Shown here: piece after piece, positions 1 through 30,657 of the stretch
How positions within the stretch are numbered: the stretch's first letter is position 1
How the letters are laid out: every line of letters begins with the position of its first letter
DNA from: Cetorhinus maximus
Lineage: Eukaryota
DNA length: 64,000 nucleotides
Assembly (NCBI RefSeq): GCF_964194155.1
Contig: NC_135880.1
Span: forward strand, 166,532,001-166,596,000
Direction of reading: 5' to 3'
The notes under the pieces: generated by a model
What the model saw: the letters and a program-made list of their open reading frames with translations, nothing else
Database searches by the model: none
What the model was told of the DNA's origin: nothing
Translations under genes and position numbers: made by a program

Positions 1-1370
1 ATGCACCTCCTCAGAGTGGATCAGCTGCCTGCCCCTTGCTTCCCAGCCGGAACTGGGAAGCAAGGCTTCCTGATTCACTCAGAATTTTTGTCCATTTAAC
101 ATCCATAGTGCCCATTACCTGCTCCAATCCCACCTGCTCATCCATATTAAAACTTTCCAGTTGGTTTCAGGACATGAAAGTGCAAATAAAGATAAATAAA
201 GCCACAAAAATGCAAACATTCCTTTGGATTTTATAAATAATAGCATTGAGTACAAGAACAAATAATAATAAATTTCTACTAGCATTATTTATGCCACAGA
301 GTACTGAGTAGAGTTTTGACTGCCCTCTTATTTCAAGGATGTTAAAGTCATTGAGAATATGCAGCATCGATACAACCGCACAATGATAGTCATAGAAACT
401 ATGAGGAGAGATTTGTGGTACAGAGCCTGCTGCTGATGGAATAGAGAACTGCAGGCATATAACACATTTTTAAAATTAAGGAGAGTTTTTTTCAGAGTGA
501 ACATTTGCTCTGATTAGGGAGCCAGTGATAAGAGAGTCATCAATTTAAAATTGTCAATGAGAATGGGGAGACAGGTTAGAGACTACTGTATAATTTAAGG
601 GGAACAATATATATATGAAACAGAGACACATACAGAGTTATGGGGGGAGTTGTGCACTGGGATTAGCTGGGGACTGTTGGAGCAGAGAGTGGAAGCCGAT
701 GATGATATTGAATGGTGGAGGAGACTGGGCGCCGATCTGGTGTAGATTTGCTCCTGTTTCTTTAAAGTCAGTTTTTGTTTTTGCTCCTGTTTCTTAATGC
801 TCTTATATTCTCATGTAAAGCTGGAATAGACACAGTGGACCAAATAGCATTAATAAGTACCAACTTAAAGCACAATTACCAACAGTCACATCGTTAAAAA
901 GGCCACTAGCAGATTGACAACAAATGGTTAAACCACAATATAGAAAATCAATTTTAGTGATAACAGATTCATAGGGAGGGAAACAGAACAGGGAGAACAA
1001 TGAGAGAGCAATGGGAAAAACAGTCCAAATAAAGGTTTTGCCCAAGAGCTGAGACTAAGATGAAAGCTGAGGAGTCTGCCATGAGGAAATTGAGGGAAAA
1101 AATGTAGTGGAAAATATTTAACGTGAGCTAAACATTTCAAAGAAGTTCGATTAAAACTATGGACAAAAGTGTTAAATGAAAACCAGAAAAAAATGACAAT
1201 GTGTATGAAGGATGAGAGGAGATAAATGTATTGCTGATCGATGCACTTATTCAATCATTCCACAAATTGTAAATGTAATAAGGATCCAGGGGGAGTGTCT
1301 CAACTGAAACGGCGCAAGAATCTCCAAGGGAAAGAGGTGGGACAAGTGATTTAAAAAAAAAGAGCTGCGA

Positions 1371-1405
1371 TGAGTCAGAGCAAAGGAGTAAAAACAGTAT
1401 ATAAA
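1371..1405 (+). promoter_or_regulatory. Relaxin copy A proximal promoter: AP-1 consensus TGAGTCA (1371-1377) and TATA box TATATAAA (1398-1405)
   Basis: Motifs read directly, about 110-145 bp upstream of the ATG, and conserved in copy B. Function is inferred. Confidence 0.6.
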
Positions 1406-1514
1406 GGGAGAGAGATCAGGCATACAGAAAACCACAGGGAGAGAGTCAGAGCAATATAGACATCTCACCAAAAGCCTGAGTACCAGTGAGGGAGGGAAAC
1501 ACTCGTGAGCTGAG

Positions 1515-1698
1515 ATGAAGTGTCTAGTGTGTGTCCTGGTAATCAACCTGCTCCTCACCTCCTTTCCCACTCCTATCTTATCCCTGTCTTTAAGGAGTGC
1601 GGAATCGACAATCAAATTGTGCGGTCGGGAGTTCATCCGAGCCATCATCTATACCTGTGGGGGTTCTCGTTGGAAGAGGCTCCTCGATAACCAGAACG
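1515..1698 (+). CDS. RLN: Relaxin copy A, coding exon 1 (signal peptide, B chain, start of C peptide)
   Basis: MKCLVCVLVINLLLTSFPTPILS-LSLRSAESTIKLCGREFIRAIIYTCGGSRW-KR: hydrophobic signal peptide, CG-x10-C B-chain pattern, relaxin RxxxRxxI cassette and dibasic site. Phase-1 donor G|GTGAGT at 1698/1699. Confidence 0.95.
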
Positions 1699-4319
1699 GT
1701 GAGTATTCAAAAAACAATCTCCCTTTGCTATGCCCCTGTCCAGGAAGTTGGCCGTTTTAGCATCATTGCAATCGAGATGTCTTAATGCTATTTATCGAGT
1801 CTCTCATTGAGTTAATAATAGTGATACTAGTTAGGCTATTGCAACTGGAATCATCTTATTTATCTAACGGACCCAATCTTCAAAATGACAGCGAGTATGA
1901 AAATAGCGAATGAGAAAATGTTTATGCCAATTTTATTTGCGAATGGCTGTCCCTCTTGTGGGGACAATGTACCTGTTATAAGCATATTATTAACATATCT
2001 CATGATGTAAAGAGTGTGTGGACTGCTGCCGTGTGGACAAGGGTGAGTACACATGCTGGAAACACAGAAACAATGCTGGTAACTTCTAAAAGACAAGTTA
2101 ACCTGAGGCTTGTTATCAGCACAGTTACTGTCAGGAGGGGACAGCTGACTTTCAATAGCTGCCTGGCCTGATATTCATTTCCAGGACTGTCAGTTCTTAT
2201 TTCAGATTCTACAGCATTGATGAGGGCTTTCTGGGTGGGGAGAGTTGGGTGCAGTCCTGTCAGTCAGCAGTGACTGTTTATTTGGAGTCACATCATTTAC
2301 CACAGAGCAAGGTTTCCTTGTTCATGGTGCAGGACTTTTCCTGGGTAAATCAATCAGCAAACGTCCTGATCACTTTATAGTGGAATCTGCTAGTGTTTTG
2401 ACATGATAGTGGCATATATTAGTTTAGTGTGAACTTCATTTAGTAAATTCTACACATTTCCGATAAACATTTTAAAATAACAAAGCCTTATTGTTGCTTC
2501 ACATTGTCACTATACTGCAGCTACTACCCACAGGATCGAACGCGGGAAGTGTGATGCGAAACTGAAGGCCAGAATTGGACCGCTGACTTTGAAGTAATGT
2601 CAGCAGATAAAATTCTGACAGCAAGGGTGACTCATTGCCAATACTGAAAAGATCCAATTCTCAGTTTGAGGAGTCATAGAGTACACTGCTAGGACCTGGT
2701 GAAATTCCACCTGACAGAGTTATACCACACCTGGAGTGCAGCTCAAACCTTCCAGGAATGGTTTCATAGCATGAAAGGAATGAAGCCATTCGTCCATCAT
2801 GCGTGCGCTGGCTCTTTGAAAGAGTCCCTTCCCACTCCCATATGTAAACCTCTACGCTACATCAATTGTCTCACACCTGTTGCCTTTGATATACTGGAGA
2901 TTTGGATGGGTCACCCAACTCCTGAGTTATACTTCCAGTTTCAAGGTGCTGTGTATCTATGTGTCTCTACAGATTCACAGAATGGTTACAGCACCGAAGA
3001 AGACACATTCAAAGTGTGAAAATAATACAGTTAAAGACAGATCTGTAATTCGAAAGAGGAATCTGAATGGCCAATAGTGTGGAGATGTTAATATAAAATG
3101 GTATAAACTTGTAAACCACTGCTTTATTGCGCTAACAATTCCCCTTTCAGGCAGTGGGAGGAGAGGTGGGAAATGCTAGGAGAATAGTTCTATGATTAAG
3201 CTGCTGGTAGAACAGTGAGTGTACGCATGTAGAAAGGTGGAAAGAGAATATCACCCACCTGACAACATTCCAGCATGTCAGCCCTGAACATTGAGAATGG
3301 TGACTGATAATGCAATCCCTGATCCATAGTGATTACAATGCAGCAAATTTAATATTGGTAATTATCAATGTTCTACTTCCATCAAACAGCACTGGCATCA
3401 CCACAGATGTTGTCAGACCTGGTGAGTTTTTCCAAAATTTTCTGTTTTTATTTCAGATTTCCAGCATCTGCAGAATTTTGCTTTTAGCACTGGGATGGTA
3501 TCAGTTTATCTAAGTTCTTTTCTGCTTTATTTTCTTTCCCATTCAGGATCCTGGCAATAATAGGAAGGAATGGTTTGAGATATTTGAAGGACTAGGCTGA
3601 AAAAAGGCAACAAACTGGATTGGAAAATTTGTTGAGACAAAGAAATTTCTGGTATAGATCCAGAAGCTGAAGTGCACGACCTGAATGCCAGGATTAGTGA
3701 CTGACTCCCATTCAGCAGGCAGCGACTAGAAACAGTTTGACTGTATCTAATGCAGTAAAAAAAAGCAGAATTTTCACCTGTCAAGCAGGGGTTCAAACCT
3801 TTTAAATCAAAAGTACAAATACAAAGTTCCCATTGGCAGGGGTGGGGATAGTCAGGGAATGATGAGGAGCAAAGAAAGGGCTACCTTCTAAGATTAAGAA
3901 TATATTTACTTGCCAATAGACTGCAATGTTTATCCAAAGATGTGTTAGAATGGATAGACTCTCTCATGAAGTTGCTCCTCTTGAGAATTGGTGTTCCATT
4001 GACCGGAATTTAACCAATTTTCTATCACAGCTGCAGAGTAACACAATTGTTTAACCAAACATTGATGGTCACTTAGAGATGGTTGTCAATTATTTCTCTG
4101 ACTATACAGCAATGTACATTTAATCGACTATATTTGTGTAGTCAAAATACAATGCAGCGCAATTAAGCAAGTGACTTTTGAGACTCCAAGGGCCATTGCT
4201 CTGCCCTAGTCAGAGGAGAGGAGGAGATGGCCATCTACTACCAGGACCGAGTGAACAATATAACTTCAATTTCATTAATCTGGTACATAGTCACAGGTGC
4301 AATTGTATTCCTGTTTTAG

Positions 4320-4666
4320 ATCCCTTCCAGACCTCAGCTGATAAAGACGACTTCAAGGAGATGGACAGCATGAAGAATCTTCAGAGAATGTTTGGCAATG
4401 ACAGGAACCAAGAAGTTGAGCTATCTTTTGTGGAGCAAGCGATCGACGAGTATTACAACCAGCACAATCAGATACCGGAGGATTTCATTGAGTACCTCCG
4501 CCAGATTGATGGAGGCAGCAATAACGACCCCGCATCTGCATTATCACAGATGCAGCATCTACCCTGGGCCAGATCCTTCAGGAAGAAAAGGGCAACAAAA
4601 CCAGGATTGTCAAGCAAATGCTGCTATAACGGCTGCACCAAAAAAGATATCAGCGTTCTTTGCTGA
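4320..4666 (+). CDS. RLN: Relaxin copy A, coding exon 2 (C peptide, RKKR site, A chain ATKPGLSSKCCYNGCTKKDISVLC)
   Basis: Acceptor ctgttttAG|AT is in frame with exon 1 (G+AT = Asp). A chain has the CC-x3-C-x8-C pattern. Spliced CDS is 531 nt, giving a 176-aa preprohormone. Confidence 0.95.
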
Positions 4667-4849
4667 AAACTATACATCTCTATAGATTATTCTATACACA
4701 TGGACTCTGCTTCAGTGAGATTTTAAACCATGTAGTCTATTAAACATCTCACAAACATGGAATAAGGCAAACGTAATTTACCTGTAACTTCTCGTATGGT
4801 CTATGTGACAGGCTTGTGTTCTTCATGCTGAATCTCTTCAAACCAATTA

Positions 4850-4855
4850 AATAAA
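4850..4855 (+). terminator. Probable polyadenylation signal of relaxin copy A
   Basis: AATAAA about 185 nt after the stop, followed by a GT/T-rich tract near 4895-4908. Confidence 0.6.
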
Positions 4856-5499
4856 ATGCAGCTGTAAAGGTTTCAACTCAATTTCTCAAGACAATTGTTT
4901 TTTTTTGTGAATAGTTTATTTAATTCATTCAAAATATTGAAACTTATTTCCCACTGAACACTGCCCACTAACACCTATGCACAAACTCTAAAAATGAGAT
5001 TCTAAAACTATCTAATCTTGGCAAATTTAGTGTGTATTTATGAATCCAGATTTAACATTTAACATAAGTGAAACCATATTAGCTGGAACAGTAAAGTATA
5101 ATTTGTAATGACTTCCTCCTGATAGGCAAGATCTGATTCAGGTGCTCCTCCTTTACAACAACAATAGCTCGGATTTATATAGCACCTTTAATAAATTTAA
5201 AGGCATCATCAAACAACATGCTAAATGGGTTTAACTATTATTTAGCCACAAAGGTGCTCCTGTGTGAGAGGAACAATACAAAATATAAGCTAAAAACAAT
5301 CATGTTATTAATTTCCAATGCATCCAATAATGCTGAACCCAATGAAGGCACTACAATTATCAGATACGCGTTTTCTAAAGCAAGATAAAATTATATAGGC
5401 TGAAAGCAGGTTTCATCACAAAAGCTTAATGCTCAGACTAAAATTAAAGCTTTGTTGTAGCATGATAGGGCGATTAAACTTATTATTCATATTCAGCAA

Positions 5500-5760
5500 A
5501 TTCTCATGTAAACACGAAGAAAGACCTGAAAAATCGGGGCTGTGTTTAGAACAGCTGAGTAAGTGTGATTTGATAAAGGTGTATGAAATTATGAAAGGAT
5601 ACAACACAATAGATGAAACAACAGTTGATCTGTTCTGATTGAGAGATCTAGAATAAGGAAGCATAGCAATGGGAATAAAATGGAGTTTAGCACAGGGTAT
5701 AGGATAATGTTTTTTGCACAGTGTGTTACAAGATTGTGGAATGCACTACCAAAGTAACAA
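5500..5760 (+). mobile_element. Old CR1 LINE 3' fragment
   Basis: Degenerate ERL..LGL..LE..R.DLIKVYKIMKG motif (ORF 5429..5638). Confidence 0.6.
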
Positions 5761-5829
5761 CACCCAGCTCTACCTTACCTCCACCTCTTATGACCCCTTC
5801 ACTGTCTCTAACTTGTCACACTGTAAATT

Positions 5830-6340
5830 TCTTTCAAGTATTAAGAAAGCCGACACCATTGTCTTTGGTCACTGCCACAAACTCTAGGCCAAAGTCAACA
5901 TCTTGCTTCCTGGCAAATGTTGCGGATTGAACAACACCTTGGCGGTGTATCTAGCCCCGAGATGAGATTCTGACCGGATGTCTTTTCTAACACCAAAACT
6001 GCATAGGTCCAATACCGTAACAACGACCTCTACCCCTGCCTCAGCTATTTGCTGCAGAAACTCTCATCCATGTTATAGTTACCTTAGACCTGACTCCCCA
6101 GTGTTCTCCTGCCTGGTCCCTTCTTCCACTCTCCATAAACTTCAGCTCGTCCATGTTCTTCTGCCTGCATCCTAATTTGAACCAAGTCCCGTTTACCAAA
6201 TACCACTGTCCTTGCGACCCTACATTGACTCCATTTGCAGCAAGGCCTTCATTTTAAAATCCACATCCTAGTTTTCGAACCTCTTCATGATCTCGTCGAT
6301 CCCTATCTCTGTAACCTCCTCCAGCCCTACGACCCTCTGA
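5830..6340 (+). mobile_element. L2-type LINE 3' fragment (degenerate)
   Basis: Resembles the L2-like pieces at 38460-38790, 48600-49200 and 50400-50700 (e.g. cctacattgactcc...ttttaaaat, atctctgtaacctcctccagcc). Confidence 0.55.
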
Positions 6341-6829
6341 GAGTAAGCTGAAATTTCCATTGGTCTGGTACTCTCACTGTATCATACCCCAAAATAGCAC
6401 AAACATTTCTGTTGGCAGAGAAATTATTTTTCACTGACAACAGGAACTTATTTTCATACAGTGCCTAAAGGCACCACAGTATTGCAAGTGCTTCACAATG
6501 ACATGCATTCCTGAGTAGAATTAGGAGGGAAAATTGAGGAAAGAACTGAAAGCATGTTTGATGAGGTAGATTTCTGGGATGTTTTTCAAAGCGGAGAAAG
6601 AGTTTCAGAGTTTGGACCCAGGTAGGAGAATGGAGAGTGTGAGCAAGGTGAATAGGATAGAATTAAAACAAACAATGTGAGACCACTTCCAAAAGCTTGC
6701 ACTTCAGTCCATATAGAAAGCCATAATTTAAAAGCACCTACTTAAGTTTTAAATACGACAATACAAAAATTGTCTGCCTGATTGATAATGAGGAAGAAAG
6801 TTGTAGTTTGGAGATTATCAGGAACTAGG

Positions 6830-9800
6830 AACTAAATTAAAGAACAGGTCCTTAAGGGTTATAATCTCTGGATTACTACCCGAGCCACGTGCAAATTGGC
6901 AGAGGGACGCGAGAATAAGGAAAGTAAACACATGGCTAAAGGAGTGGTGCGGGAAAGAGGGGTTCCATTTCGTGGGGCACTGGCATCAGTATTGGAACAG
7001 GAGGGATCTGTACCGTTGGGACGGTCTCCACCTGAACCAATCTGGGACCAATGTTCTAGCGAAAAGGGTAAATAGGTTGGTCAACAGGACTTTAAAATAG
7101 AAATTGGAGGGGGGAGAGAAGGGTAAAACTCCAAGAAGTATGACTAATGGGAAACAAAGCAGCAGGTTAGTGTGTGGAGGGGTGGATTCAACTTCATGGA
7201 AAATTATGAAAAAACTGAAAAGAAAAGAGAGCCCAGGAGAGGCTATTAAAGTCTCCAGAACACAAAATAGGACAGAGTGTTTGGAAAGGGCTAGGAATCT
7301 AACTTCAAGCACAGCAGATAAAGGGACAACAATGAGAAAGGGGACGGGAAATACAGAACTGAAGGCGTTGTATCTGAATGCACACAATATACAAAATAAG
7401 GTAAATGAGCTTGTGGCGCAGATTGAAATTGGCAGGTATGATGTGGTGGGCATTACGGAGACATGGCTGCAAGGGGATCAGGACTGGGAGCTAAATATCC
7501 AAGGATAGACATCCTATAGAAAGGATAGGCAGGTTGGCAGATGGGGTGGAGTTGCTTTGTTAGTAAGAAATGAAATTAAATCGATAGCAAGAAATGATGT
7601 TGGGTCAGATGATGTAGAATCTGTGTGGGTAGAGTTGAGAAACTGCAAAGGTAATAAAAACATAATGGGAGTTATATACAGGCCTCCGAACAGTAGTCAG
7701 GATGTGGGGCACAAGATACACCAGGAGATAGAAAAGGTGTGTAAGAAAGGCAAGGTTACAGTGATCATGGGGGATTTCAATATGCAGGTAGACTGGGAAA
7801 ATCAGGTTGGTAGTGGATCCCAAGAAAAGGAACTTGTGGAATGTCTACGAGATGGCTTTTTGGAGCAGCTTGTGGTGGAGCCCACTAGGGAACAGGCAAT
7901 TCTAGATTTAGTGATGTGTAATGAGGCAGATTTGATAAGGGAGCTTAAGGTGAAGGAACCCTTAGGAGGAAGTGACCATAATATGTTAGAATTTGCCCTG
8001 CAATTTGAGAGGAAAAACCTGGAATCAGATGTAACAGTGTTACAGTTGAATAAAGACAACTACAGAGGCATGAGTGAGGAGCTGGCCAGAATTGACTGGG
8101 AGATGAGCCTAGCAGGAAAGACAGTGGAACAGCAATGGCAGGAGTTTCTGGGAGTAATTTGGGAGACACAGCAAAAATTCATCCCTAGGAAGAAGAAGCA
8201 TACTAAAGGGAAGACGAGGCAACCATGGCTGACAAGGGAAGTCAGGGACAGCATAAAAAATAAAGAGAAAGCATACAATGCGGCGAAGAGCAGTGGGAAA
8301 CCAGGGGATTGGGAAGCCTACAAAGACCAACAGAGGACAACTAAAAAAGAAATAAGGAGGGAGAAGATTAAATATGAGGGTAAACTAGCCAGTAATATAA
8401 AAGAAGATTGCAAGAGTTTTTTTAGATATATAAAGGGTAAGAGAGAGGCAAAAGTGGACATTGGGCCGCTGGAAAATGACCCTGGAGAAGTAGTAGTGGG
8501 GAACAAAGAAATGGCGGAGGAACTGATTAGTTACTTAGTGTCAGCCTTCACAGTGGAAGACACGAGTAGCATTCCCAAAGTTCAAGAGAGTCAGAGGGCA
8601 GAAGTGAGTATGGTGGCCATTACCAAGGAGAAGGTGCTAGGAAAACTGAAAGTTCTGAAGGTTGATAAATCACCTGGACCAGATGGATTACACCCCAGAG
8701 TTCTGAAGGAGATAGCTGAAGAGAGAAGGCAGTCAGGCAAAAAATGGGAAATTACAGGCCGATTAGCCTGATGTCGGTCGTTGGTAAGATTTTAGAGTCC
8801 ATTATTAAGGACGAGATTTCAGAATACTTGGAAGTGCATGGTAAAATCGGGCAAAGTCTGCTTGGTTTCATCAAGGGGAGGTCATGCCTGACAAATCTGT
8901 TAGAATTCTTTGAGGAGGTAACAAGTAGGTTAGACAAAGGCCAGCCAATGGATGTTATCTACTTGGACTTCCAGAAGGCCTTTGACAAGGTGCCACACAG
9001 GAGGCTGCTCAGTAAGATAAGAGCCCATGGTGTTAGAGGCAAGGTACTAGCATGGATAGAAGATTGGCTGTCTGGCAGGAGGCAGAGAGTGGGGATAAGG
9101 GGGTCCTTCTCAGGATGGCGGCCAGTGACTAGTGTAGTTCCGCAGGGGTCAGTGTTGGGACCACAACTTTTCACTTTATACATTAATGATCTAGATGAAG
9201 GAACTGAGGGCATCCTGGCTAAGTTTGCAGATGATACAAAGATAGGTGGATGGACAGATAGTATTGAGGAGGTGGGGAGGCTGCAGAAGGATTTGAACAG
9301 GTTAGGAGAATGGGCAAAGAAGTGGCAGATGGAGTACAACGTGGGGAAGTGTGTGGTCATGCACTTTGGTAGGAAGAATAGAGGCATGGACTATTTTCCA
9401 AAATGGGGAGAGAATTCAGAAATCTGGAGTGCAAAGTGTCTTGGGAGTCCTAGTCCAAGATTCTCTTAATGTTAACTTGTAGGTTGAGTTGGTAGTTAGG
9501 AAGGCAAATGCAATGTTGGCATATATTTCGAGAGGACTAGAATATAAAAGCAGGGATGTGCTGCTGAGGCTTTATAAGGCTCTGGTCAGACCACATTTAG
9601 AATATTGTGAGCAATTTTGGGCCCCGTATCTCAGGAAGGATGTGCTGGCCCTTGAGAGGGTCCAGATGAGATTCACGAGAACGATCCCAGGAATGAAAGG
9701 CTTAACATATGAGGAACGTTTGAGGACCCTGGGTCTATACTCGATGGAGTTTAGAAGGATAAGGGGGGATCTGATTGAAACTTACAGAATACTGAAAGGC

Positions 9801-10149
9801 CTGGATAGAGTGGACGTGGGGAAGATGTTTCCATTAGTAGGAGAGACTAGGACCCGAGGGCACAGCCTCAGAGTAAAGGGAAGACCTTTTAGAACAGAGA
9901 TGAGGAGAAACTTCTTTAGCCAGAGAGTGGTGAATCTATGGAATTCATTGCCACAGAATGCTGTGGAGGCCAGGTCATTGAGTGATTTAAGACCGAGATA
10001 GATAGGTCTTGATTGGTAAGGGGATCAAAGGTTATGGGGAGAAGGCGGGAGAATGGGGTTGAGAAACTTATCAGCCGTGATTGAATGACGGAGCAGACTC
10101 AATGGGCCGATTGGCCTAATTTCTGCTCCTATGTCTTATGGTCTTATGG
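6830..10149 (+). mobile_element. Young 5'-truncated CR1 LINE in the palindrome spacer: end of ORF1 (SGNH esterase), ORF2 APE endonuclease + RT, disrupted
   Basis: ORF1 tail IISGLLP...DGLHLN. ORF2 motifs YLNA, GITETWL, GDFN, SDH, YLDFQKAFDKVPH, PQGSVLGP and FADD. Lesions: stop at 7506-7508, an internal deletion near 8722 relative to the 55.4-57.7 kb copy, and a frameshift near 9400. 3' tail (tcttatgg)n. Confidence 0.95.
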
Positions 10150-10795
10150 ATTGCTGAAAGATATCAATGGACTAGTTCAAGTGAGCAGAAACGTGGCAAA
10201 TATAATTTAATCCAAAGCAGCATGAGGGGCTCTTCATCCTTTGAGGCAAAGATGTCCATGTTCATCATCTGGAGTGTTTGGTAGGGATCCCGTTGGTACG
10301 TTGGTGACTGCTAAGGCCGATCTGCACCCAGAAGGCTCTGCTGAAAATGATAGCTGGAATCCAATGGTTAAACTATGATGAGAGATTAAACAAACTAGGG
10401 AGGTTGTACTCCATGGAATTTAGAAGGTTAAGGGGTGATTTTATTAAAGTTCTCAAGATATTGAGGGGAGTAGATAGAGCAGTTTGTGAGAAACTATCCC
10501 CACTAGTTGGGAAGCCTAGGCCTAGGGGGCATAATCAAAAATTTAGAGCCAGGTCTTCTAGGAGTGTAAAGGATGGTGGAGCTTTGGACCTCTATTCTGC
10601 AAATGGCAACTGAAGCTATTCTAATTGTTAATTTTAAAACTGAGATCGATAGATTTTTTGCTGGTCAAAGGTATTAAGGGATATAGGGCAAAGGCAAGTA
10701 TATGGAGTTAGGTTATTGATCACCCTAACCATTAAATAGCAGAATGGGGTTAAGGGGCTAAATGGCCTATTATTGATCTTATGTTCCTACATTCC
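10150..10795 (+). mobile_element. Older CR1 LINE 3' fragment(s)
   Basis: ORF 10347..10613 ERLNKLG.LYSMEFRRLRGD; CR1-type 3'UTR ggggctaaatggccta. Confidence 0.75.
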
Positions 10796-11144
10796 TAACG
10801 TGAATTCACTGACCTTGACCATTCTTAATGATATTTGAACTCCTTGACACTAGCCTCATAACTGTGACCGTGCAGCTATCTGCTTCCCTGCCTCCCCTCC
10901 CTAAATAGGACGGAATTCATGCATCACATTCCCCATAAACAGAATGAAACAGGAAGAGACTGCAGTAGACTTTGCCTGCATTATCTACCTCAGATTCCAA
11001 GGCCATAGAATGGACTCACATTGCATTTCACACTCCTTATCACCAGTCTGACATATTTCTCTTCTGAAAGGGATACCACTCCCTAAATATAGCTTGTTTG
11101 AGGCCGTAGGCTGTCATGTAGAGTTGTGGCTGGTTTCTTGGTTT

Positions 11145-11491
11145 TCAGCAAAGAACGCTGATATCTTTTTTGGTGCAGCCGTAAAAGCAGCATTTGTTTG
11201 ACAACCCTGGTGATGTTGTCCTTTTCTTCCTGAAGGATCTGGCCCAGGGTAGGTGCTGCATCCGTGATGATGCAGATGCGGGGTTGTTATTGCTGCCTCC
11301 ATAAATCTGGCGGAGGTACTCAATGAAATCCTCCGGTATCTGATTTTGCTGGTTGTAATACTCGTCGATCACTTGCTCCACAAAAGATGGCTCAACTTCT
11401 TGGTTCCTGTCAATGCCAAACATTCTCTGAAGATTCCTCATGCTGTCCATCTCCTTGAAGTTGTCTTTATCAGCTGAGGTCTGGAAGGGAT
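11145..11491 (-). CDS. RLN: Relaxin copy B, coding exon 2 (C peptide, RKKR, A chain TTSPGLSNKCCFYGCTKKDISVLC)
   Basis: 347 nt, same length and acceptor as copy A exon 2. All A-chain cysteines are intact. TGA at 11147-11145. Confidence 0.95.
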
Positions 11492-13666
11492 CTAAAACAG
11501 GAATACAATTCCATCTGTGAATATGTGCCAGATTAATGAAATTGAAGTTATATTGTTCACTCTGTCCTGGTTGTATATGGCCATCTCCTCCTTTCCTCTG
11601 TCTAGGGCAGAGAAACAGCCCTTGGACTTTCAAAAGTCACTTGCTTAATTGGGCTGTATTGTGTTTTGACTACACAAATATAGTCGATTAAATGTACATT
11701 GCTGTATAGTCAGAGAAATAATTGACAGCCATCTCTAAGTGACCATCAATGTTTAGTTAAACAATTGTGTTACACTGCAGTTGCGATAGAAAATTGGTTA
11801 AACTCCAGTCAATGGAACACCAATTCTCAAGAGGAGCAACATCATGAGAGAGTCTATCCATTCAAACACGTGTTTGGATAAACATTGCAGTCTATTGGCA
11901 AGTAAATATTTTCTAAATCTTAGAAGGTAGCCCTTTCTTTGCTCCCCGTCATTCCCTGACTATCCCCACCCCTGCCAATGGGAACTTTCATGTTTGTGGT
12001 TTTGATTTAAAAGGTTTGATCCCCTGCTTGACAGGTGAAAATTCTGCTTTTTTTTTACTGCATTAGATACAGTCAAACTGTTTCTAGTCGCTGCCTGCTG
12101 AATGGGAGTCAGTCACTAATCCTGGCATTCAGGTCGTGCACTTCAGCTTCTGGATCTATACCAGAAATTTCTTTGTCTCAACAAATTTTCCAATCCAGTT
12201 TGTTGCCTTTTTTCAGCCTAGTCCTTCAAATATCTCAATCCATTCCTTCCTATTATTGCCAGAATCCTGAATGGGAAAGAAAATAAAGCAGAAAAGAACT
12301 TAGATGAACTGATGCCATCCCAGTGCTAAAAGCAAAATTCTGCAGATGCCGGAAATCTGAAATAAAAACAGAAAATTTTGGAAAAACTCACCAGGTCTGA
12401 CAACATCTGTGGTGATGTCAGTGCTGTTTGATGGAAGTAGAACATTGATAATTACCAATATTAAATTTGTTGCATTGTAATCACTATGGATCAGGGATTG
12501 CATTATCAGTCACCATTCTCAATGTTCAGGGCTGACATGCTGGAATGTTGTCAGGTGGGTGATATTCTCTTTCCACCTTTCTACATGCGTACACTCACTG
12601 TTCTACCAGCAGCTTAATCATAGAACTATTCTCCTAGCATTTCCCACCGCTCCTCCCACTGCCTCAAAGGGGAATTGTTAGCGCAATAAAGCAGTGGTTT
12701 ACAAGTTTATAGCATTTTATATTAACATCTCCACATTATTGGCCGTTCAGATTCCTGTTTCGAATTACAGATCTGTCTTTAACTGTATTATTTTCACACT
12801 TTGAATGTGTCTTCTTCAGTGCTGTAACCATTCTGTGAATCTGTAGAGACACATAGATACACAGCACCTTGAAACTGGAAATATAACTCAGGAGTTGGGT
12901 GACCCATCCAACTCTCCAGTATATCAAAGGCAACAGGTGTGAGACAATTGATGTAGCGTAGAGGTTTACATATGGGAATGGGAGGGGACACTTTCAAAGA
13001 GCCATCACAAGCATGATGGGCGAATGGCTTCATTCCTTTCGTGCTATGAAACCATCCCTGGAAGGTTTGAGCTGCACTCCAGGTGTGGTATAACTCTGTC
13101 AGGTGGAATTTCACCAGGTCCTAGCAGTGTACTCTATGACTCCTCAAACTGAGAATTGGATCTTTTCAGTATTGGCAATGAGTCACCCTTGCTGTCAGAA
13201 TTTTATCTGCTGACATTACTTCAAAGTCAGCGGTCCAATTCTGGCCTTCGGTTTCGAATCACACTTTCCGGGTTCGATCCTGTGGGTAGTAGCTGCAGTA
13301 TAGTGACAATGTGAAGCAACAATAAGGCTTTGTAATTTTAAAATGTTTATCGGAAAGGTGTAGAATTTACTAATTGAAGTTCACACTAAACTAAAATATG
13401 CCGCTATCATGTCAACACACTCGCAGATTCCACTATAATGTGATCAGGACATTTGCTGATTGATTTACACAGGAAAAGTCCTGCACTATGATCAAGGAAA
13501 CCTTGTTCTTTGGTAAATGATGTGACTCCAAATAAACAGTCACTGCTGACTGACAGGACTGCGCCCAACTCCACCCACCCAGAAAGCCCTCATCAATGCT
13601 GTAGAATCTGAAATAAGAACTGACAGTCCTGGAAATGAATATCAGGCTAGACAGCATTTGAAAGCC

Positions 13667-14433
13667 GAAATACCTGGAAAAACTCAGCAGGTCTAGCAGC
13701 TTCGGCAGAGAAGAGCAAAGTTGACGTTTCGAGTCCTCATGACCCTTCAACAGAACTAAGTAAAAATAGGAAAGTGGTGAAATATAAGCTGGTTTAAGGG
13801 CGTGGGGGTGGGGGGCAGTGTGTGGGGTGGGGGGAGGGTGGGGTTGTTGGGACAAGCAAGCAGTGAAAGGAGGAGATAACCAAAAGGTGTCACAGACAAA
13901 AGGACAAAGAGGTGTTGTAGGCGGTGATATTATCTAAAAGAATGTGCTAATAAAGAGTGGAAAGCAGGACAAGCAAGGTAGCTCTAGTGACAATTGTTTC
14001 CACAATTGTAGATCTTGAACTCCCTCCTCCATCCCCACTCCTTTCCGTTTCTTCTCCCTCCTTTTTGTTTTTTCCAATAATTTATATAGGTTTTTCTTTT
14101 CCTACCTATTTCCATTATTTTTAAATGTATTCCACCCATCGTTTATTTCACCCCACCCCCACTAGAGCTACCTCTTTGTTCTTTTGTCTGTGACATCTTT
14201 TGGTTATCTCCTCCTATCACTGCTTGCTTATCCCTACAACCCCAAGCCCCCCTTCTCCACCACCCCCACTTAAACCAGCTTATATTTCACCCCTTTCCTA
14301 TTTTTACTTAGTTCTGTTGAAGGGTCATGAGGACATTTGCTCTGCTCCGCCGATGCTGCCAGACCTGCTGAGTTTTTCCAGGTATTTCTGTTTTTGTTTT
14401 GGATTTGCAGCATCCGCAGTTTTTTGTTTTTAT
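13667..14433. mobile_element. Fold-back Penelope-like non-autonomous element inserted only in the intron of relaxin copy B; 14-bp TSD
   Basis: AGCATTTGAAAGCC is duplicated at 13653-13666 and 14434-14447; a single diverged copy lies at about 2146-2160 in copy A. About 13667-13990 and 14160-14400 are inverted copies of each other. Hammerhead-like motif present. Confidence 0.85.
13719..13757 (-). ncRNA. Minimal type-I hammerhead-ribozyme-like motif (core variant CUGUUGA)
   Basis: Minus strand reads AGTT-CTGTTGA-A-GGGTC-ATGAG-GACTC-GAAA-CG-TC-AACT: 4-bp stem I, 5-bp stem II, palindromic ACGU stem III, GUC site. A6 is replaced by U, so activity is uncertain. Confidence 0.6.
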
Positions 14434-14892
14434 AGCATTTGAAAGCCAGCTGTCCCCTCCTGACAGTAACTGTGCTGATAACAAGCCTCATGTTAACTTG
14501 TCTTTCAGAAGTTACTTGAGCCGCTCTGTTTCCAGCATTTGTACTCACCCTTGTCCACACGGCAGCAGTCCACACACTCTTTACATCATGAGATATGGTA
14601 ATAATATGGTTATAACAGGTATATTGTCCCCACAAGAGGGACAGCCATTCGCAAATAAAATTGGCATAAACATTTTCTCATTCGCTATTTTCATACTCAC
14701 TGTCATTTTGAAGATTGGGTCCGTTAGATAAATAAAATGATTCCAGTTGCAATAGCCTAACTAGTATCACTATTATTAACTCAATGAGAGACTCGATAAA
14801 TAGCATTAAGACATCTCGATTGCAATGATGCTAAAACGGCCAACTTCCTGGACAGGGGCATAGCAAAGGGAGATTGTTTTTTGAATACTCAC

Positions 14893-15076
14893 CGTTCTGG
14901 TTATCGAGGAGCCTCTTCCAACGAGAACCCCCACAGGTATAGATGATGGCTCGGATGAACTCCCGACCGCACACTTTGATTCCCGGTTCCGCACTCTTTA
15001 AAGACTGGGATAAGATAGGAGTGGGAAAGGAGGTGAGGAGCAGGTTGATTACCAGAACACACACTAGACACTTCAT
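14893..15076 (-). CDS. RLN: Relaxin copy B, coding exon 1 (signal peptide, B chain QSLKSAEPGIKVCGREFIRAIIYTCGGSRW)
   Basis: 184 nt with a G|GTGAGT donor, RxxxRxxI cassette and KR site; same structure as copy A. Confidence 0.95.
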
Positions 15077-15222
15077 CTCAGCTCACGAGTGTTGAGCCTG
15101 GGCTTCTCTGTAAACCTCGCAGTAAGTGTTCCGCTCCCTCACTGGTACTCAGGCTTTTGGTGAGATGTCTATATTGTTTTGACTCTCTCCCTGTGGTCTT
15201 CTGTATGCCTGATCCCTCTCCC

Positions 15223-15257
15223 CTTATATACTGTTTTTACTCCTTTGCTCTGACTCA
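15223..15257 (-). promoter_or_regulatory. Relaxin copy B proximal promoter: TATATAAG (15230-15223) and AP-1 site (15251-15257)
   Basis: Paralogous to 1371-1405, with one base different at the end of the TATA box. Confidence 0.55.
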
Positions 15258-18200
15258 TCGCAGCTCTTTTTTTTTTTAAATCACTTGTCCCACCTCTTTC
15301 CCTTGGAGATTCTTGCGCCGTTTCAGATGAGACACTCCCCCCGGATCCTTATCACATTTATAATTTGTGGAATGATTGAATATGTGCATCGATCAGCAAT
15401 ACATTTATCTCCTCTCATCCTTCATACACTTTGTCATTTTTTTCTGGTTTTCATTTAACACTTTTGTCCATAGTTTTAATCGAACTTCTTTGAAATGTTT
15501 AGCTCATGTTAAATATTTTCCACTACATTTTTTCCCTCAATTTCCTCATTGCAGACTCCTCAGCTTTCATCTTAGTCTCAGCTTTTGGGCTAAACTTTTA
15601 TTCGGACTGTTTTTCCCATTGCTCTCTCATTGTTCTCCCTGTTCTGTTTCCCTCCCTATGAATCTGTTATCACTAAAATTGATTTTCTATATTGTGGTTT
15701 AACCATTTGTTGTCAATCTGCTAGTGGCCTTTTTAACCATGTGACTGTTGGTAAATGTGCTTTAATTGGTACTTATTAATACTATTTGGTCCACTGTGTC
15801 CATTTCAGCTTTACATGAGAATATAAGAGCATTAAGAAACAGGAGCAAGAACAAAAACTGACTTTTAAGAAACAGGAGCAGTTCTACACCAGATTGGCAC
15901 CCAGTCTCCTCCACCATTCAATACAATCATGACCGATCTTTGGCTTCAACTCTCTGCTCCAACAGTCCCCAGCTAATCCCAGTGCACAACTCCCCCCATA
16001 ACTCTGTATGTGTCTCTGTTTCATATATATATATATATCACATTGTTCCCCTTAAATTATACAGTGGTCTCTAACCTGTCTCTCCATTCTCATTGACAAT
16101 TTTAAAATGATGACTCTCTTATCACTAATCAGAGCAAATGTTCACTCTAAAAAAAACTCTCCTTAATTTTAAAAATGTGTTATATGCCTGCAGTTCTCTA
16201 TTCCATCAGCAGCAGGCTCTGTACCACAAATCTCTCCTCATAGTTTCTATGCCTGTCATTGTGCGGTTGTATCGATGCTGCATATTCTCAATGACTTTAA
16301 CATCCTTGAAATAAGAGGGCAGTCAAAACTCTACTCAGTACTCTGTGACATAAATAATGCTAGTAGAAATTTATTATTATTTGTTCTTGTACTCAATGCT
16401 ATTTATAAAATCCGAAGGACTGTTGGCATTTTTGTGGCTTTATTTATCTTTATTTGCACTTTCGTGTCCTGAAACCTACTGGAAAGTTTTAATATGGATG
16501 AGCAGGTGGGATTGGAGCAGGTAATGGGCACTATGGATGTTAAATGGACAAAAATTCTGAGTGAATCAGGAAGCCTTGCTTCCCAGTTCCGGCTGGGAAG
16601 CAAGGGGCAGGCAGCTGATCCACTCTGAGGAGGTGCATTGGCATTTTCAACATGTTAATGAGGCTGGCAGTCTCATATTTGCAGGTTTGGCTGTGGCCGA
16701 CTGGGTTTCCCAGGCCTTGGGAATGCAAATGCTGCACCAAGGCGAGGATGGCCACATGGAGAAGGCAAGTGCCTTTGCAGCTGTCCTTGTGGGCCAGGAG
16801 GAGCAGAAATGCTTCCTCTCGCCCCCACAGTCACCCGCCCATTAGAATCCTCAAATGCCACACCCGGTCCCCTGGAATTGGACCTCCCTAGAATCAAAGT
16901 TAGACACCCTGGAAAGAGGGCTTGGGCCTAACTGGTCTTCACAGTGACCCCTGCATTCCTGGAAGGCAAGCCTGTCAGTCAGGCTGATTTCTGGGCAGGA
17001 AATCTGTCTGGACTGATTTGTTGCACCCATCAAGACCAGAAGTTAAAACTCCAAAGCATATGGAAAAACCCCGACTTCCAGATTTCATATATGCTAAAGG
17101 ATTTCACCAATCCTCCCCTTCCTCCCCAGCCCACTCCCAATTCATTGCCAAGTAGAACGTGCACCTCCTAGGTCTCATTGTGAAGTGGGGTGAATTAAAT
17201 TGAGAATTTAATGAAACATTTGCGAAAACTCCTGTAGCTATGGCACAAACACCTCATTGAGGCTAAATTCCACATTCCTGGTCTTTCTCACTCCACTGAG
17301 TCACGTGATTTGAGGTTAAACTCTCACTTGTCCACTCAAGCATAAAACGCAGTTTACAAAACAATTGGAAATTACATTCATTCAAAGAACAGTTGATCAC
17401 ATTGTTGTGTAACTAATTGGATTTCAACAGCCCACAAATAAGGCACCAAATAAACAGGTTTAAGCAACACAAATGAAGCAACTTACACTTCAAATGCAAT
17501 GAAATAAACAAAAGATGGTGGAAAAGGTGTCAAGGTAAGTTGAAAACTGAAATCATCGAGGGCACATTCTCACCCTTTCTGCTGTTCTCCCCACTATCTC
17601 CAGGAGTTATTTGAGGCCTTTCCTGGTGAGACAAGTGGCAAAAATTCAATCCTCCTAAATAGATGAGGTGGAGGTTCAGGCTGGCTTGGGGTCTTTCTGC
17701 TCAAACACACAATGCTCACACAGCCCGAAAAAGGGATATTATTAAGGGGAAAAGGGTTGGCTGTGAGCCCTGCTTCAGTTAATGCCAGGCTATGAATGTA
17801 ATCATCCGGAATAAGACAAAGGCCTTGTTTGCAAGTGGGCAACCATTCTGGAGAGGGATGGGAATTATTGATCCATTGTAAGAGGCAGGAAGGTGTTTGT
17901 AGATACGGTAAATCCTAAGAAAGCGCACTAGATGGTATGATTGATGAGAGTAGAGGGTATGGCAGTTGCCATTGCTATTCATAGAAAGGCAGTGGAAGGC
18001 ACCACAATGGCCCTAATGGAGAATGTTGAGAGGTACCGGGGGCCTTGATTATGGAGGAAACAATCCTTGGGTAGCAGAAGGAGAGAGGGCAAGCAGAGCA
18101 AATGCAGAGGGGGTAAAGATCGGGTGGTATTTGTAGGAGGCAGAGGAGATAGAACTTGGAATGATGGGGTGAAGGGAGACAGGTGAGTGGAGCTCAGGAA

Positions 18201-19019
18201 GTGCCAGAGAAAGCTAATGGGAGTAGTCGGCTTGGGTCCAGAGCAGCAACCAAGGCAGACACACAGGTAAAAGTTGAACTATGCAAGCAGAGTAGAGATT
18301 TATGGCTTTTCATATGGATGAAAAGTGATTAATCAATTACTCCTGCTCTCAGGACTTGAGTGTGTAAGAAACTGGAGCCAAATGGCCATGAGGCAGCAGT
18401 GGAATGCACTTATAGGAAATGTCAGTATCTGCAGCCAACTGAACATCAAGAACAGGACCAATCAGTTTGGAGATGATGGGTGAAGAGATAGAAATAAGAA
18501 CCACTGGAGGTGTTGATTAATCAGTTGGAGGTGTTGATTAATCACTTAAGGCCAGATTGAAATTAGGAAGCCCAGTAGATTCAGGAGATATTTTGGAGTT
18601 TAATTTCCATCTACTGAGTGGCTGATATAAAGATATGGGTGAATCCAGGATGCAGCAAAAGAGTATAATGTAATTGAAGAAAAGTATAGGAATGAGAAAC
18701 TGCAAAGATTGGGAATACAAAGAAGGTGAAAAGACATTCAGAGACCATAGGGAGGAGGAAGATGGTCCAAGGAACAAGTACAAAATACAAAGAGCAGCAG
18801 ATTGAAGAGAACAGGTGGGGCCAGCCTTAAGGGTAAATAGCACCTAACAGTGCTTTAGATAGAGCAGGCTCAGAGACAGTGAAAGTTGAGCTTTATGGAG
18901 GTGTAGAACAGGAAGTAAAAAGGAAGGCAGCAGTGAGTTTAAGTTCCCAAAAAGAGAATTATCACAACACAAACAGCTTGCCTCTTCTTCAGCTGTGTTG
19001 GCATCACAGACTAGCATCT

Positions 19020-19370
19020 GTATACCACCAACATTTGTAAAGGAACACAGTTAACAATGTGATAACAGCCACATAACCAATTTTTTCTTGTGTGATGTAA
19101 ACTGAGGGACAGACATTAGCCAGGACACCAGGGATTACTTCCATACTCTTACTTTGGAATAGCACAATGGGAATGTTTATATCCCTGAACTGGGACCTTA
19201 GTTTAACAGTTTGACTGAAAGACAGCAGCTCCAAGTATACAGCCATTCCTCATTGCTGCACTGGAGCATCAGCCTTGATTTTTACACACTCAAGTCCTGA
19301 GAGCAGGATTTGAACCTCGAGCCTTATGGCTCAGAGGTACAAGTGCTACCAGCTGAGCCACATCTAACAC
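19020..19370 (-). mobile_element. tRNA-derived DeuSINE-like element
   Basis: Minus strand starts with a tRNA-like head (gtgggctcagctggtagcact...gaggttcaaatcc), followed by body motifs shared with 25425-26115. Confidence 0.65.
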
Positions 19371-19939
19371 CTCCTTACCTTTTAGTCTTTAAACTCTGTG
19401 AACAAAATTTTTTGTGAAGAACACAGGAAGTGCAGATCAGTGGCGATCTAAGATCAGCAATTAATGGCAGCAACCTTTTAGCAGCGGCCAACATAGATTC
19501 ACAAGGGGAAGATCCTGTTTGACAACATTTACTTCTTTGAGGAAATGGCGCCTGAAGTTGACTATGGTAAATCCCACTATGTTTTGTGACTAGACTTGCA
19601 GAAGTCATCCAGGAAAGCAGATCAGGGAGAGAGCATAGGTAAAGATAAAGTTTGAGATAGCTCAGAGCCAGATCAGGAGAGCAGAGGTCAGGGTAGAACA
19701 TGTAGAGCCAGGAATCAGAAGTTGCATTGGAGGTCTGGTTGGGAGGAAGGAAACAGTTAAACAGCTAGACTATAGGTGATTTTATAACAAGAGCCAATGC
19801 CTTTCACTGTCTTTTCACTCTCAGTCAACAGGTTTCTTCCTTCTTCCTGAATAGAATGTGTCCCCCATCACCCAGCTGGGTACCGTTTCTTCTGATTCCT
19901 GTACCGGAAAGAGTTTGTGTATCTTTTTCCCATCCGTCA

Positions 19940-21400
19940 AGAATTCTGGGTGAAACAGACCTTATTCACTGCCTTAAATATTTCCTCTGTTCACCACTGG
20001 TGCAACATGGCTGCAGGGTGTACCATTTACAAGATGCACTGCAGCAACTCGCCGAGGCTTCTTTGAAAGCACCTCCCAAACCCATGACTCCTGCCAACAA
20101 GAAACGCAGGGGGAGTGGGTGCGTGGGAGCGCTGTCACCTGCACATTTCACTCCAAATCACATGCCATCCTGATCTGGAAATATATCACTGTTTCTTCAC
20201 TGTTGCTGGATCAAAATCCTGAAACTCCCTATCTAACAGCAGTGTGGGAGCTTCACCACGTGGGTTGCAGCTATCCAGCAAGGATGCTCATCTGCACCTT
20301 TTCAAGGGCAATGGGTGATGAGCAATAAATTATGTCCTTCCCAGTAATGTCCACATGCAGTAAATCAATTTAAAAAGTCAACTGGCGTAAAGAAAAGACT
20401 CTATGAACATTTCCATCCTTAATAGCACCAAAGCCCAGCATATGTGTAAGATATAGAACTGAAATGTTTCTAACAGTCTTTTGTAATTTTGTAGCCAAAA
20501 CTGCCAAGTGGACAATCTCATTTTACCTCTTCCTGAGGTTCCTACCATCACAGATTCTGGGCATGGCATTAAGGAAAGGCAAAATGTACTGGATAAAATG
20601 AAGGCAATGGACTCTGAAAACATTCCAGTTGAGACTTGTGCACCACAACCATCTGCTCCCCAAACAAAGCTGGTTCAGTACAGGTATCACATTAGCATAT
20701 ATCTAACAATAAGAAAAAGTTCCCATGTACACCCTATCCTCACAAAGCTGGACATATTAAACTTAGCCAATTAGTATCCTATCAGCCTCTTTCCTACACT
20801 TAAGAAAGTGATAGAATGAAACAATAAGTCTACAATCAAGTGATACCTATTCACCAGTAACTGCGCTGATAGTCAGTTTGGGTTCTGCTAGAACCACTAT
20901 GCTCCAGACCTTGTCACAGAATTAATCCAGTCATGTGCTCCAAAGCTGAATGCCAGAGGAAAGGTGAGAGTAGCTGTTCTTGATATCAAGGCAGCATCTG
21001 ACTGAGTATGGCACCAAGGAGCCCCAGTAAAACTGTAGCCAATGGTTGTCAAGCTTCCTGTGGCTGGAATCAGAACTGACACAAATAAAAGTGGTTGTTG
21101 GAAGCTGCAGGGAAACGCCCATGACATATATTCAGCTACTTCTCAATGATTTTCCCTTCATGAATGGGGCTCTCTGTCAATGATTCTACAGAGGCTCCAT
21201 TCACAATTCTTCTGACAACAGAGCTTGTGCTGGACTGCACCAGGACAACAGTCAGACTTGGGCTAAAAAGTGGCCAATAATATTTATGCCACATAAATTA
21301 TGGGCAATGACCAATCATTTTCCTTAATCTTTAACAGTGCCACATTTGGTGAGGTCTTACCATCAACATCCAGACCAGAAGCCTAACTGGACTGAACATT
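19940..21400 (+). mobile_element. Degenerate fragments of a CR1-group (Zenon-like) LINE: 3' end, then RT region
   Basis: Tail gggcaatgggtgatgagcaataaat...ccacat; remnant LDIKAA.D.VWHQGA, as in 52659..53225. Confidence 0.6.
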
Positions 21401-21831
21401 TCATAAACATGGTTCAAATGATGAGGGATTTGTAGAAATAGATAAGAGAAATTGGTCCCTTTCAAAGTGGCAGCTAACAGTGCTGTTATGATTGACTCTG
21501 AGGAACCAGAAGAGCTATAAACACATTTAGCAAGATCCAATCTGCAGAACATTATACAAGACAGTATTTTTCAATTGTCTCATAGACATTTGTGCCATTT
21601 CCAGTCCTATCAGCAACTTTTCATAATAAATCACAAGGCACTGCTATCAAACCTACCACTGCACAAGCAACTCTACACTCTATGCCTTTCCCTCTTGTAG
21701 ATAAAATTTTTGTACACAAAATGTACCTCCTATGGCAATCTAGTTTAGATTGCAAAATGTGGAGCATTTATGAATTGAGAGGAATGTACGTGTTCAAGTT
21801 TGATGGCCTAACTTGTTTTTTCCTTTCAGCT

Positions 21832-21929
21832 ATGGCTGGAGACTTTAAGATGGCTGGAGACTGTAAGATGGCTGGAGACTGTAAGATGGCTGGAGACGGT
21901 AAGATGGCTGGAGACTGTAAGATGGCTGG
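21832..21929 (+). repeat. 18-bp minisatellite (ATGGCTGGAGACTGTAAG) x about 5.4
   Basis: Five near-perfect units (two single-base variants) plus a partial unit. Confidence 0.95.
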
Positions 21930-22612
21930 CAGCTGAGGCGACTTGCAACATCTGTGAGTAGGGCTCCAATAGGCTGCCCTGCTGTAGGTGTGGGGCAGGC
22001 ATCTCCTGCCCACTTTCTGGCACATGCAGTCATTAGGAGAGCTTGGCAAACTGGCATGCTTGTGGGAGAGACAACAGCATCATCCATTGGAGGATTGGCC
22101 TGGCCCCTATGTCATCATGTTCACTGATGTCTGGGTGAGTAGATCCCATGGCATCAATGATGTATATTCAAGTGCCTCTCAATGATTTCATTTGGATGAG
22201 GCATTCAGCTGTCCTGTTCAATAGGCGATATTGCTAGGGAAGTGTGTGTAGCATGAATTCATGAGGAATGTTAAAACTAACTCAACAACCTCTGCCATGA
22301 AGGCCTGTGCTGTCATTGAATTGGCATTTTTTCCAAAGCTGTTTGCATACCTTTCTATGATGGTCATGGAAATTTTCACACTAGGCACAGTGTGTTGAAA
22401 GGGGCAGCAGTTAGGGGGCTGCAATGCCATTCATATTTATGCATTGTGCCAATTATTAGCTTCAAGAACTGCTTCCTCCTACCTATGCACCTTCCTGCTG
22501 ATCACCAGTATGCTGAAGCGTGCACTTGTTAGCACCTCCCTTTGTTCAGCAGCAACCCCTTTAGCAGAAGGCCACACAGAGTTTATTGTGTTGACAGAGT
22601 CTGCCAAGTTTG

Positions 22613-25306: not shown

Positions 25307-25424
25307 TCTGCCAGGTTTGATGTTTTTACTTGACATCCATCTTGGAGAAGGAGCGGATTGAGCCCACCTCCCCCAAACCTCCAATTTGAACTGTACTTGC
25401 ATCAACAAGATTTCTACATCAGCA

Positions 25425-26115: not shown

Positions 26116-26156
26116 CTTAAGTGCTCCAAAGCAAAAAAGTCACTGCTGCTCCCAAT

Positions 26157-30495: not shown

Positions 30496-30657
30496 CAGTG
30501 AAGAGACAGGTGATAGCCACACAGACAGATAGAGAGACACATACAGGGAGCTGTAAATTAGAAAGAGAGAGTTACAGAAAGAGGGATAAAAAGGATGAGG
30601 AAAGGGTTGGACACAGGGAGAGAGATGCCACAGGAAGAGGCCATCTAAAGTGAAAAA

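Follow-up and report, generated by a model that had tools for sequence, protein, structure and literature searches.

The stretch of Cetorhinus maximus DNA analyzed here (called the window; 64,000 nucleotides [nt] without N, G000:C2:166,532,001-166,596,000, C2 being contig NC_135880.1) carries two intact relaxin (RLN) genes on opposite strands, copies A and B. Their mature hormone chains differ more than the non-coding DNA around them does, and the two genes form the youngest layer of a large relaxin-like array. The features of the copies are listed below, with positions counted in the window and domain borders set by homology.

1398..1405, + strand: putative TATA-like box upstream of copy A, called from the sequence alone
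1515..1698, + strand: RLN copy A exon 1 (signal peptide, B chain, start of the C peptide); the protein is P0016
1699..4319, + strand: copy A intron, GT..AG, 2621 nt, differing from the copy B intron at 104 of 2618 aligned sites
4320..4666, + strand: RLN copy A exon 2 (C peptide, RKKR site, A chain, stop)
4667..4862, + strand: ancestral 3' untranslated region (UTR), retained in A only; a contig of run X19 reaches 4862
11145..11491, - strand: RLN copy B exon 2; the protein is P0004
13665..14438, - strand: repeat insertion of ~775 nt, private to the copy B intron
14893..15076, - strand: RLN copy B exon 1
15224..15230, - strand: putative TATA-like box upstream of copy B, called on the same basis as that of A

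Each copy is a 531-nt open frame of 176 residues, split into two exons by a phase-1 GT..AG intron. A contig of run X19, which comes from a relative and was taken as RNA by guess, joins 1697 to 4319 across a GT..AG splice junction. Both proteins have six cysteines in the B-/A-chain pattern, an RxxxRxxI motif in the B chain, and predicted basic cleavage sites flanking the C peptide, and both match the Pfam Insulin family (PF00049; 33 bits for A and 30 bits for B, with a cut-off of 23). The source database lists P0016 and P0004 as "relaxin-3-like" proteins of C. maximus. The untranslated flanks differ: 37 nt of 5' UTR that B and relatives retain are gone from A. The sequence after the stop of A is common to the close paralogues C, D, and F and has ATTAAA at 72 and 179 nt, and the first AATAAA past the stop of B is 699 nt away.

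The copies are the inner ends of an inverted duplication of ~40 kb (G000:C2:166,496,870-166,536,670 versus 166,543,141-166,583,411 reversed), the arms of which are 94-97% identical and diverge fairly evenly, by 1.6-4.3% per 2 kb.

1..4670, + strand: inner end of the left (parent) arm, which starts ~35 kb left of the window
11141..51411, - strand: right (daughter) arm, ending 4 nt past the copy B stop codon
33039..40597, - strand: 5'-truncated PLGRKT copy with three coding exons at approximately 40597-40451, 36513-36391, and 33160-33039

Because the right arm stops 4 nt past its stop codon, copy B is without the ancestral 3' UTR and has a 3' flank of its own. This lack, together with a neighboring PLGRKT that is without its first coding exon, marks B as the daughter. 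PF10166, which we take to be the PLGRKT family, matches in both arms, and the first PLGRKT coding exon was found once, at C2:166,458,5xx, outside the left arm. The three exons of the truncated copy are open and show two replacements and no silent change in the 309 nt compared, too few changes for PLGRKT to serve as a coding control for the pair. A protein-database search with a PLGRKT exon gave no usable match.

The first-pass annotation had counted 25 nucleotide differences between the coding sequences (CDSs), 22 of them non-synonymous and 3 synonymous, changing 20 of 176 residues. Our recount reproduced these figures exactly, as it did the two codons hit twice (32 and 155), the split of changed residues among B chain (5), C peptide (10), and A chain (5), and the identity of the signal peptide and receptor-binding core (residues 1-23 and 36-53). 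The synonymous differences lie at codons 7, 141, and 157. Non-synonymous sites make up ~74-78% of the CDS, so neutrality alone would give ~18-19 non-synonymous changes in 25. The whole-CDS ratio of non-synonymous to synonymous divergence (dN/dS, or omega) is 2.1-2.9, with a one-sided p of 0.054-0.17 (kappa 4 to 1); not being significantly above 1, it was rejected as proof of selection. The 22:3 count alone is weak in that the whole-CDS ratio fails to separate an omega of 1 from a higher one. It does exclude ordinary purifying selection on the pair, since the probability of at least 22 non-synonymous changes in 25 is 0.0015 at an omega of 0.5 and 1e-5 at 0.3. CpG hypermutation was considered as a cause of the excess and discarded, as just 4 of the 25 differences are CpG transitions.

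Non-coding DNA provides the stronger comparison. The mature chains (residues 24-53 and 153-176) carry 12 non-synonymous changes in ~117 sites (10.3%), and the neutral yardsticks stand at 104/2618 (4.0%) for the intron and 1027/35453 aligned sites (2.9%) for the arms, so that mature sites differ at 2.6-3.5 times the non-coding rate. The excess over the intron is 2.6-fold (Fisher p = 0.003). Over the arms it has an empirical p of 0.005, obtained by drawing two windows of matching size from the arms, or 0.015 if each of the two doublets is counted once. The C peptide evolves at 1.1 times the intron rate, and the signal peptide plus B core have no replacement in ~86 sites. With the neutral distance fixed, the maximum-likelihood (ML) omega is 2.7-3.8 for the mature chains (p = 0.003-0.0002) and 1.15-1.6, not significant, for the C peptide. 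For this pair, significance is reached only against the non-coding rate; coding sites taken alone fall short of it.

A similar domain bias recurs in other relaxin duplicates. Measured at the protein level as mature divergence over signal-plus-C divergence, it is 0.13-0.78 in all seven non-lamniform RLN orthologue pairs, 0.40-1.01 in six orthologue pairs from the old genes of the array, and 2.3-34 in all 12 young RLN-paralogue pairs from five species (these pairs share sequences and are not independent). The A/B pair has a ratio of 2.3 (p = 0.07), and 10 of the 11 other young pairs have p < 0.01. Among the close paralogues A, B, C, D, and F, the non-coding distance is 3-11%, and the mature-chain non-synonymous distance is 30-42% in 8 of 10 pairs. 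Along exon 1, A differs from C, D, and F by 0-5 per 30 nt, a figure that jumps to 7-14 at the B chain. C and D differ at 28 codons, 2 of them silently. When each domain of these five genes is given its own synonymous rate, the B and A chains together have an omega of ~2 (p = 0.006; 0.04-0.05 without 13 ambiguous codons) and the B chain one of 2.9-5.7 (p = 0.002-0.007). Shared-branch codon models, which gave an omega of 3.5-10, were set aside as inflated by the raised synonymous rates of the mature regions. For 18 array genes (19 were aligned, and one with a stop was excluded), site models M8 and M8a gave a likelihood ratio statistic of 79, with 22% of sites at an omega of 2.7. The flagged sites (14 of 21 in 45 mature columns, 7 in 93 C-peptide columns, and none in 22 signal columns) include motif positions 38, 42, and 45 and the A/B sites 31, 138, 160, 164, and 165; on array sequences this distant, the M8 result is suggestive only.

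Selection on the pair is supported because the mature chains exceed non-coding DNA and because other duplicates show the same pattern. We therefore favor, with a probability of roughly 60%, an explanation in which the intact RLN copies arose through the ~40-kb inverted duplication and their mature chains then diverged under positive selection around an unchanged core, with the C peptide approximately neutral. Several points weigh against this explanation. Coding sites alone are not significant, either for the whole CDS (ML omega 2.76, p = 0.066) or for the mature chains (p = 0.054). The mature-chain partition was picked post hoc, and a fourfold correction brings its p to 0.01-0.06. Residues 31, 35, 80, 96, and 155 conflict with a simple recent duplication. 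Lamniform RLN compared with horn shark has a ratio of 0.9-1.1, so the speed-up of the mature chains may predate the duplication, and two equally young pairs from the old array have no mature excess (1/54 and 0/51 residues). In the five close paralogues, the A-chain omega at its own rate is 0.8-1.5 and not significant, double and triple hits are frequent in mature codons, and synonymous rates in the mature regions are 1.1-8 times as high as divergence in non-coding DNA, a sign that conversion or multi-nucleotide change contributed. Both processes inflate tests of this kind, and neither is allowed for in our codon models, which were self-written and used M0-scaled branch lengths and naive posteriors.

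The first-pass annotation had offered diversifying selection or relaxed constraint on one copy. For the pair taken alone both readings survive, minus the restriction to one copy. Under relaxed constraint, redundant copies would drift outside the core at an omega of ~1, and the mature excess would be a chance cluster. A 22:3 count fits an omega of 1 (p = 0.077), and the near-intron rate of the C peptide, the unevenness of local non-coding divergence (1 to 15 differences per 200-nt window of the aligned part), the loss of the ancestral 3' UTR from B with its distant AATAAA, and the breakage of about half of the array loci are all what drift would lead one to expect. Drift is, however, capped at the neutral rate, which the mature sites exceed 2.6- to 3.5-fold; it does not account for the absence of replacements from the signal peptide and B core; and the same domain bias appears in four other shark species. 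We consider relaxed constraint alone a rather unlikely explanation.

Which copy changed was judged from a protein alignment of 25 shark sequences and from contigs of relatives (40 of 383 rows in one set and all 20 rows in another). Most calls of a B-derived state rest on no such row in the covering contigs plus white-shark P0003. By these criteria, residues 24, 32, 102, 136, and 165 and silent codon 7 are derived in A; residues 72, 88, 110, 125, 131, 138, 153, 160, and 164 and two silent codons are derived in B; and the polarity of residue 27 is ambiguous. At least five residues thus changed on A and at least nine on B, with three clear changes each in the mature chains. Non-coding changes are nearly symmetric, with 51 on A, 43 on B, and 20 of unclear side. 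It had been anticipated that selection would be refuted if all changes fell on one copy; both changed, so the pair is not a case of one copy decaying. DNA contigs of run X14 show several A-chain-exon variants at window positions 4595-4685, which suggests multiple close RLN copies or alleles in that relative.

The residues that conflict with a simple recent duplication raise another alternative, namely, that the split of A from B is older than that of the lamniform relatives, with arm-to-arm conversion evening out the silent DNA and selection rejecting conversion of the differing residues. White-shark P0003 has the B state at 31 and 35, in exon 1, and the A state at 80, 96, and 155, in exon 2; at each of these residues the other copy has the state found in deeper orthologues. 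Contigs of runs X10 and X14 carry the letter of B at 1617 but lack it at 4374 and 4422, and synonymous divergence of A and B from C, D, and F is highest in the mature regions. Inverted arms also favor gene conversion. Letters found in A and B only (1757, 1760, 1904, 1945, 2293, and 3601; absent from relatives and paralogues) fit a young duplication equally well, however, and both the even divergence of the arms and the distance of the copy A pieces of run X10 (3.5-8.6%, ~2 times the arm distance) tell against an early split. Even this alternative, which we regard as quite improbable, still requires selection on the protein differences; if it were true, the high dN/dS would reflect divergence that was maintained rather than rapidly gained. 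That the copies are alleles or a false duplication in the assembly is very improbable indeed, given inverted arms 2.9% apart over 35 kb with private insertions, a window free of N, a separate 3' flank for B, and no extra copy on an unplaced contig among the matches listed.

The neighbors of the pair bear on its identity. RIC1 lies on the - strand at 164.81 Mb, 1.7 Mb from the pair. With human strands as we presume them to be, RIC1(-), PLGRKT(+), and RLN(+) here correspond to the human order read backwards. That order is JAK2-INSL6-INSL4-RLN2-RLN1-PLGRKT-CD274-PDCD1LG2-RIC1 in PMC12094932. With PLGRKT and RIC1 as neighbors, the locus is therefore RLN (RFLB) and not RLN3. A better RLN3 candidate than the pair lies on C29. 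The "relaxin-3-like" database label arose because the B chain of the pair resembles that of RLN3. In a 53-sequence tree rooted on chimaera P0050 and built without full-length RLN3, INSL3, or INSL5 sequences, A and B nest among canonical shark proteins. C29, C13, and C18 each have a further relaxin-family locus, whose identity we infer, with a JAK match 0.1-2 Mb away; JAK matches fall on C13, C18, C29, and the unplaced C437, and none falls on C2 among the matches listed. The fourth JAK-type FERM exon (L216, G000:C437:57,514-57,660) may be the JAK2 expected near RLN. At G000:C29:16,548,014 (L221), the usually conserved glycine of an RLN3-like B chain is replaced, with CRREFIRA in the place of the CGREFIRA of relatives.

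The pair sits within a largely unannotated array of ~1.7 Mb that holds ~30 relaxin-like genes plus remnants. Scanning 165.161-166.966 Mb of C2 with iterated profiles yielded 32 exon-2 and 30 exon-1 places in 1.765 Mb, with two more exon-2 places and one more exon-1 place to the left (frameshift duplicates were merged, and one weak match of each kind was dropped). Exons were paired by proximity into 20 two-exon models, of which 14 are intact (ATG, GT..AG, no stop, six cysteines); among the other 6 are models with only four or five cysteines, with a broken donor, with TTG in place of ATG, with a stop, or with exons whose pairing is doubtful. Model g165497 is identical to public protein P0038. 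RxxxRxxI/V occurs in A and B only, and the remaining 18 models are without it. The old-array genes and C, D, and F are thus relaxin-derived and INSL-like but are not relaxins by the B-chain motif definition. None of six old-array queries, five of which were exon 2 only, scored above the Pfam cut-off, and such scores may explain the poor annotation of the array. A second inverted duplication, >200 kb long and 95-99% identical (165.73-165.94 versus 166.20-166.43 Mb), duplicates several array genes and pseudogenes.

When 1.84 billion representatives were searched with a profile, 17 matched, the named ones being from catshark, bamboo shark, whale shark, sevengill shark, little skate, Atlantic stingray, chimaera, and C. 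maximus and mostly labeled "uncharacterized." In the 53-sequence tree, seven old-array lineages (g165681, g165622, g166130, g165523, g165497, g165956, and g165782/g166367) group with proteins of other sharks with 94-100% support. Skate and stingray proteins fall inside the old clade (100%) without firm partners, and the deep branching order is not settled. In bamboo shark and cloudy catshark, the accession numbers run consecutively, which suggests a tandem order there as well. Canonical RLN is itself duplicated within sevengill shark, two catsharks, epaulette shark, and C. maximus. There is, then, an old layer common to sharks, with ray members, and a young layer of lineage-specific RLN duplicates. 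A lone pair with single-copy orthologues, which the first-pass annotation had assumed, is not what these genomes contain: A and B are the youngest layer of a large array, and some relatives have several close copies.

Several array members are unusual in themselves. The open gene g165261 (L099, G000:C2:165,260,991-165,265,453, + strand) has serine for the first B-chain cysteine and histidine for the second A-chain cysteine, that is, the two partners of one predicted interchain disulfide; a relative at 165,197-165,198 kb has both. Paralogues C and D (L043 and L044, at G000:C2:166,772,541 and 166,700,472) have lost 45 codons in frame at the start of exon 2 and have also lost the RKKR site. Paralogue F has a TTG start, and paralogue E has a stop in its B chain, with no exon 2 found in the array scan. 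In little skate P0043, an array-type protein, the C peptide contains three near-identical repeats of ~59 residues. Fixed cysteine codons, known in some hypervariable peptide families, were looked for and rejected, as TGC and TGT both occur in cysteine columns. The interval 166.59-166.80 Mb has additional young inverted repeats, with 99.6% identity between the arms of one. Outside C2, G000:C30:22.05-22.07 Mb (L026, L031, and L032) holds a third IGF-like locus and, 13 kb upstream of it, one more divergent exon for an IGF-like B domain; C9, C23, and C8 also carry IGF-like loci. The spacer between the arms of the A/B duplication contains one further feature.

7101..10001, + strand: broken element with endonuclease and reverse transcriptase frames, seen in the translations, which we take to be of the long interspersed nuclear element (LINE) type

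A second broken LINE-type copy, 92-96% identical and in the opposite orientation, lies at 55434-57746, just outside the right arm.

In gene structure, the pair resembles vertebrate RLN at RFLB, with two exons, a phase-1 intron, six cysteines, RxxxRxxI, and PLGRKT adjacent. Relaxins have been isolated from shark and skate gonads, and the RxxxRxxI/V motif of the B chain defines relaxin-type ligands, according to PMC551602. Teleost rln is described as single-copy in PMC2805637, in contrast to shark RLN, which here is duplicated amid ~30 related loci. Another parallel is mammalian RFLB (INSL4, INSL6, RLN1/RLN2), for which PMC551602 and PMC3971578 describe local RLN duplication and positive selection on the B and A chains. 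The human locus has four genes, whereas the shark array has 14 intact genes in 20 models, and RIC1 and PLGRKT flank the old shark layer, whereas mammalian INSL4/INSL6 lie on the other side. From this position, and from the mammal-only origin of INSL4/INSL6 given in those two papers, rather than from a joint tree, we infer that the shark expansion is independent of the mammalian one. An Atlantic stingray relaxin-like peptide without the relaxin motif, known to us by its description in PMC551602, is similar in being elasmobranch and motif-less, and the same species has the array-type proteins P0047/P0051; that the peptide belongs to the array is a guess. Titles and abstract openings yielded no described shark RLN array and no report of selection on shark relaxin duplicates, subscription journals and shark-genome supplements lying outside the scope of the search, and in the available text of PMC3310001 the words "shark" and "cartilaginous" do not occur. 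Duplication of relaxin in another mammal, the rabbit, is reportedly the subject of one paper, going by its title.

The favored explanation, positive selection on the mature chains of recent duplicates, would make the RLN locus a site of birth-and-death evolution. One copy would retain the RLN role, and spare copies would rapidly alter exposed residues in the B-chain N-terminus, the A-chain N-terminus, and the A12-A13 loop. Most spare copies would decay, and some would become established as new ligands, with their mature chains conserved from then on. A and B are both predicted to be processed at KR and RKKR and to bind RXFP1- or RXFP3-type receptors via RxxxRxxI. The A chain tunes RXFP1 versus RXFP3 preference, and A and B would be predicted to differ in potency or receptor preference, not in basic activity. 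We put at even odds the wider proposal that elasmobranchs possess a previously unrecognized family of at least a dozen relaxin-derived hormones, independent of mammalian INSL4/INSL6 and far larger; that its old members, retained over hundreds of millions of years despite having no relaxin motif, need other receptors or binding modes; and that the locus still spawns ligands in each lineage through rapid selection on the mature chains, with A and B at the earliest stage.

The 22:3 count of the pair would be minor on its own. Selection on the pair is likely, but the case is a modest one, and the larger result is the array together with its repeated domain-specific divergence. Expansion of the relaxin locus accompanied by fast evolution is known from mammals, where it is linked to pregnancy. 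Elasmobranchs, among them egg-layers and live-bearers of several kinds, present a larger and older parallel that offers a natural series for the origin of hormones from one gene. The "relaxin-3-like" label of the pair is corrected to RLN, and the array supplies named, synthesizable ligands and may explain the motif-less relaxin-like peptides of rays.

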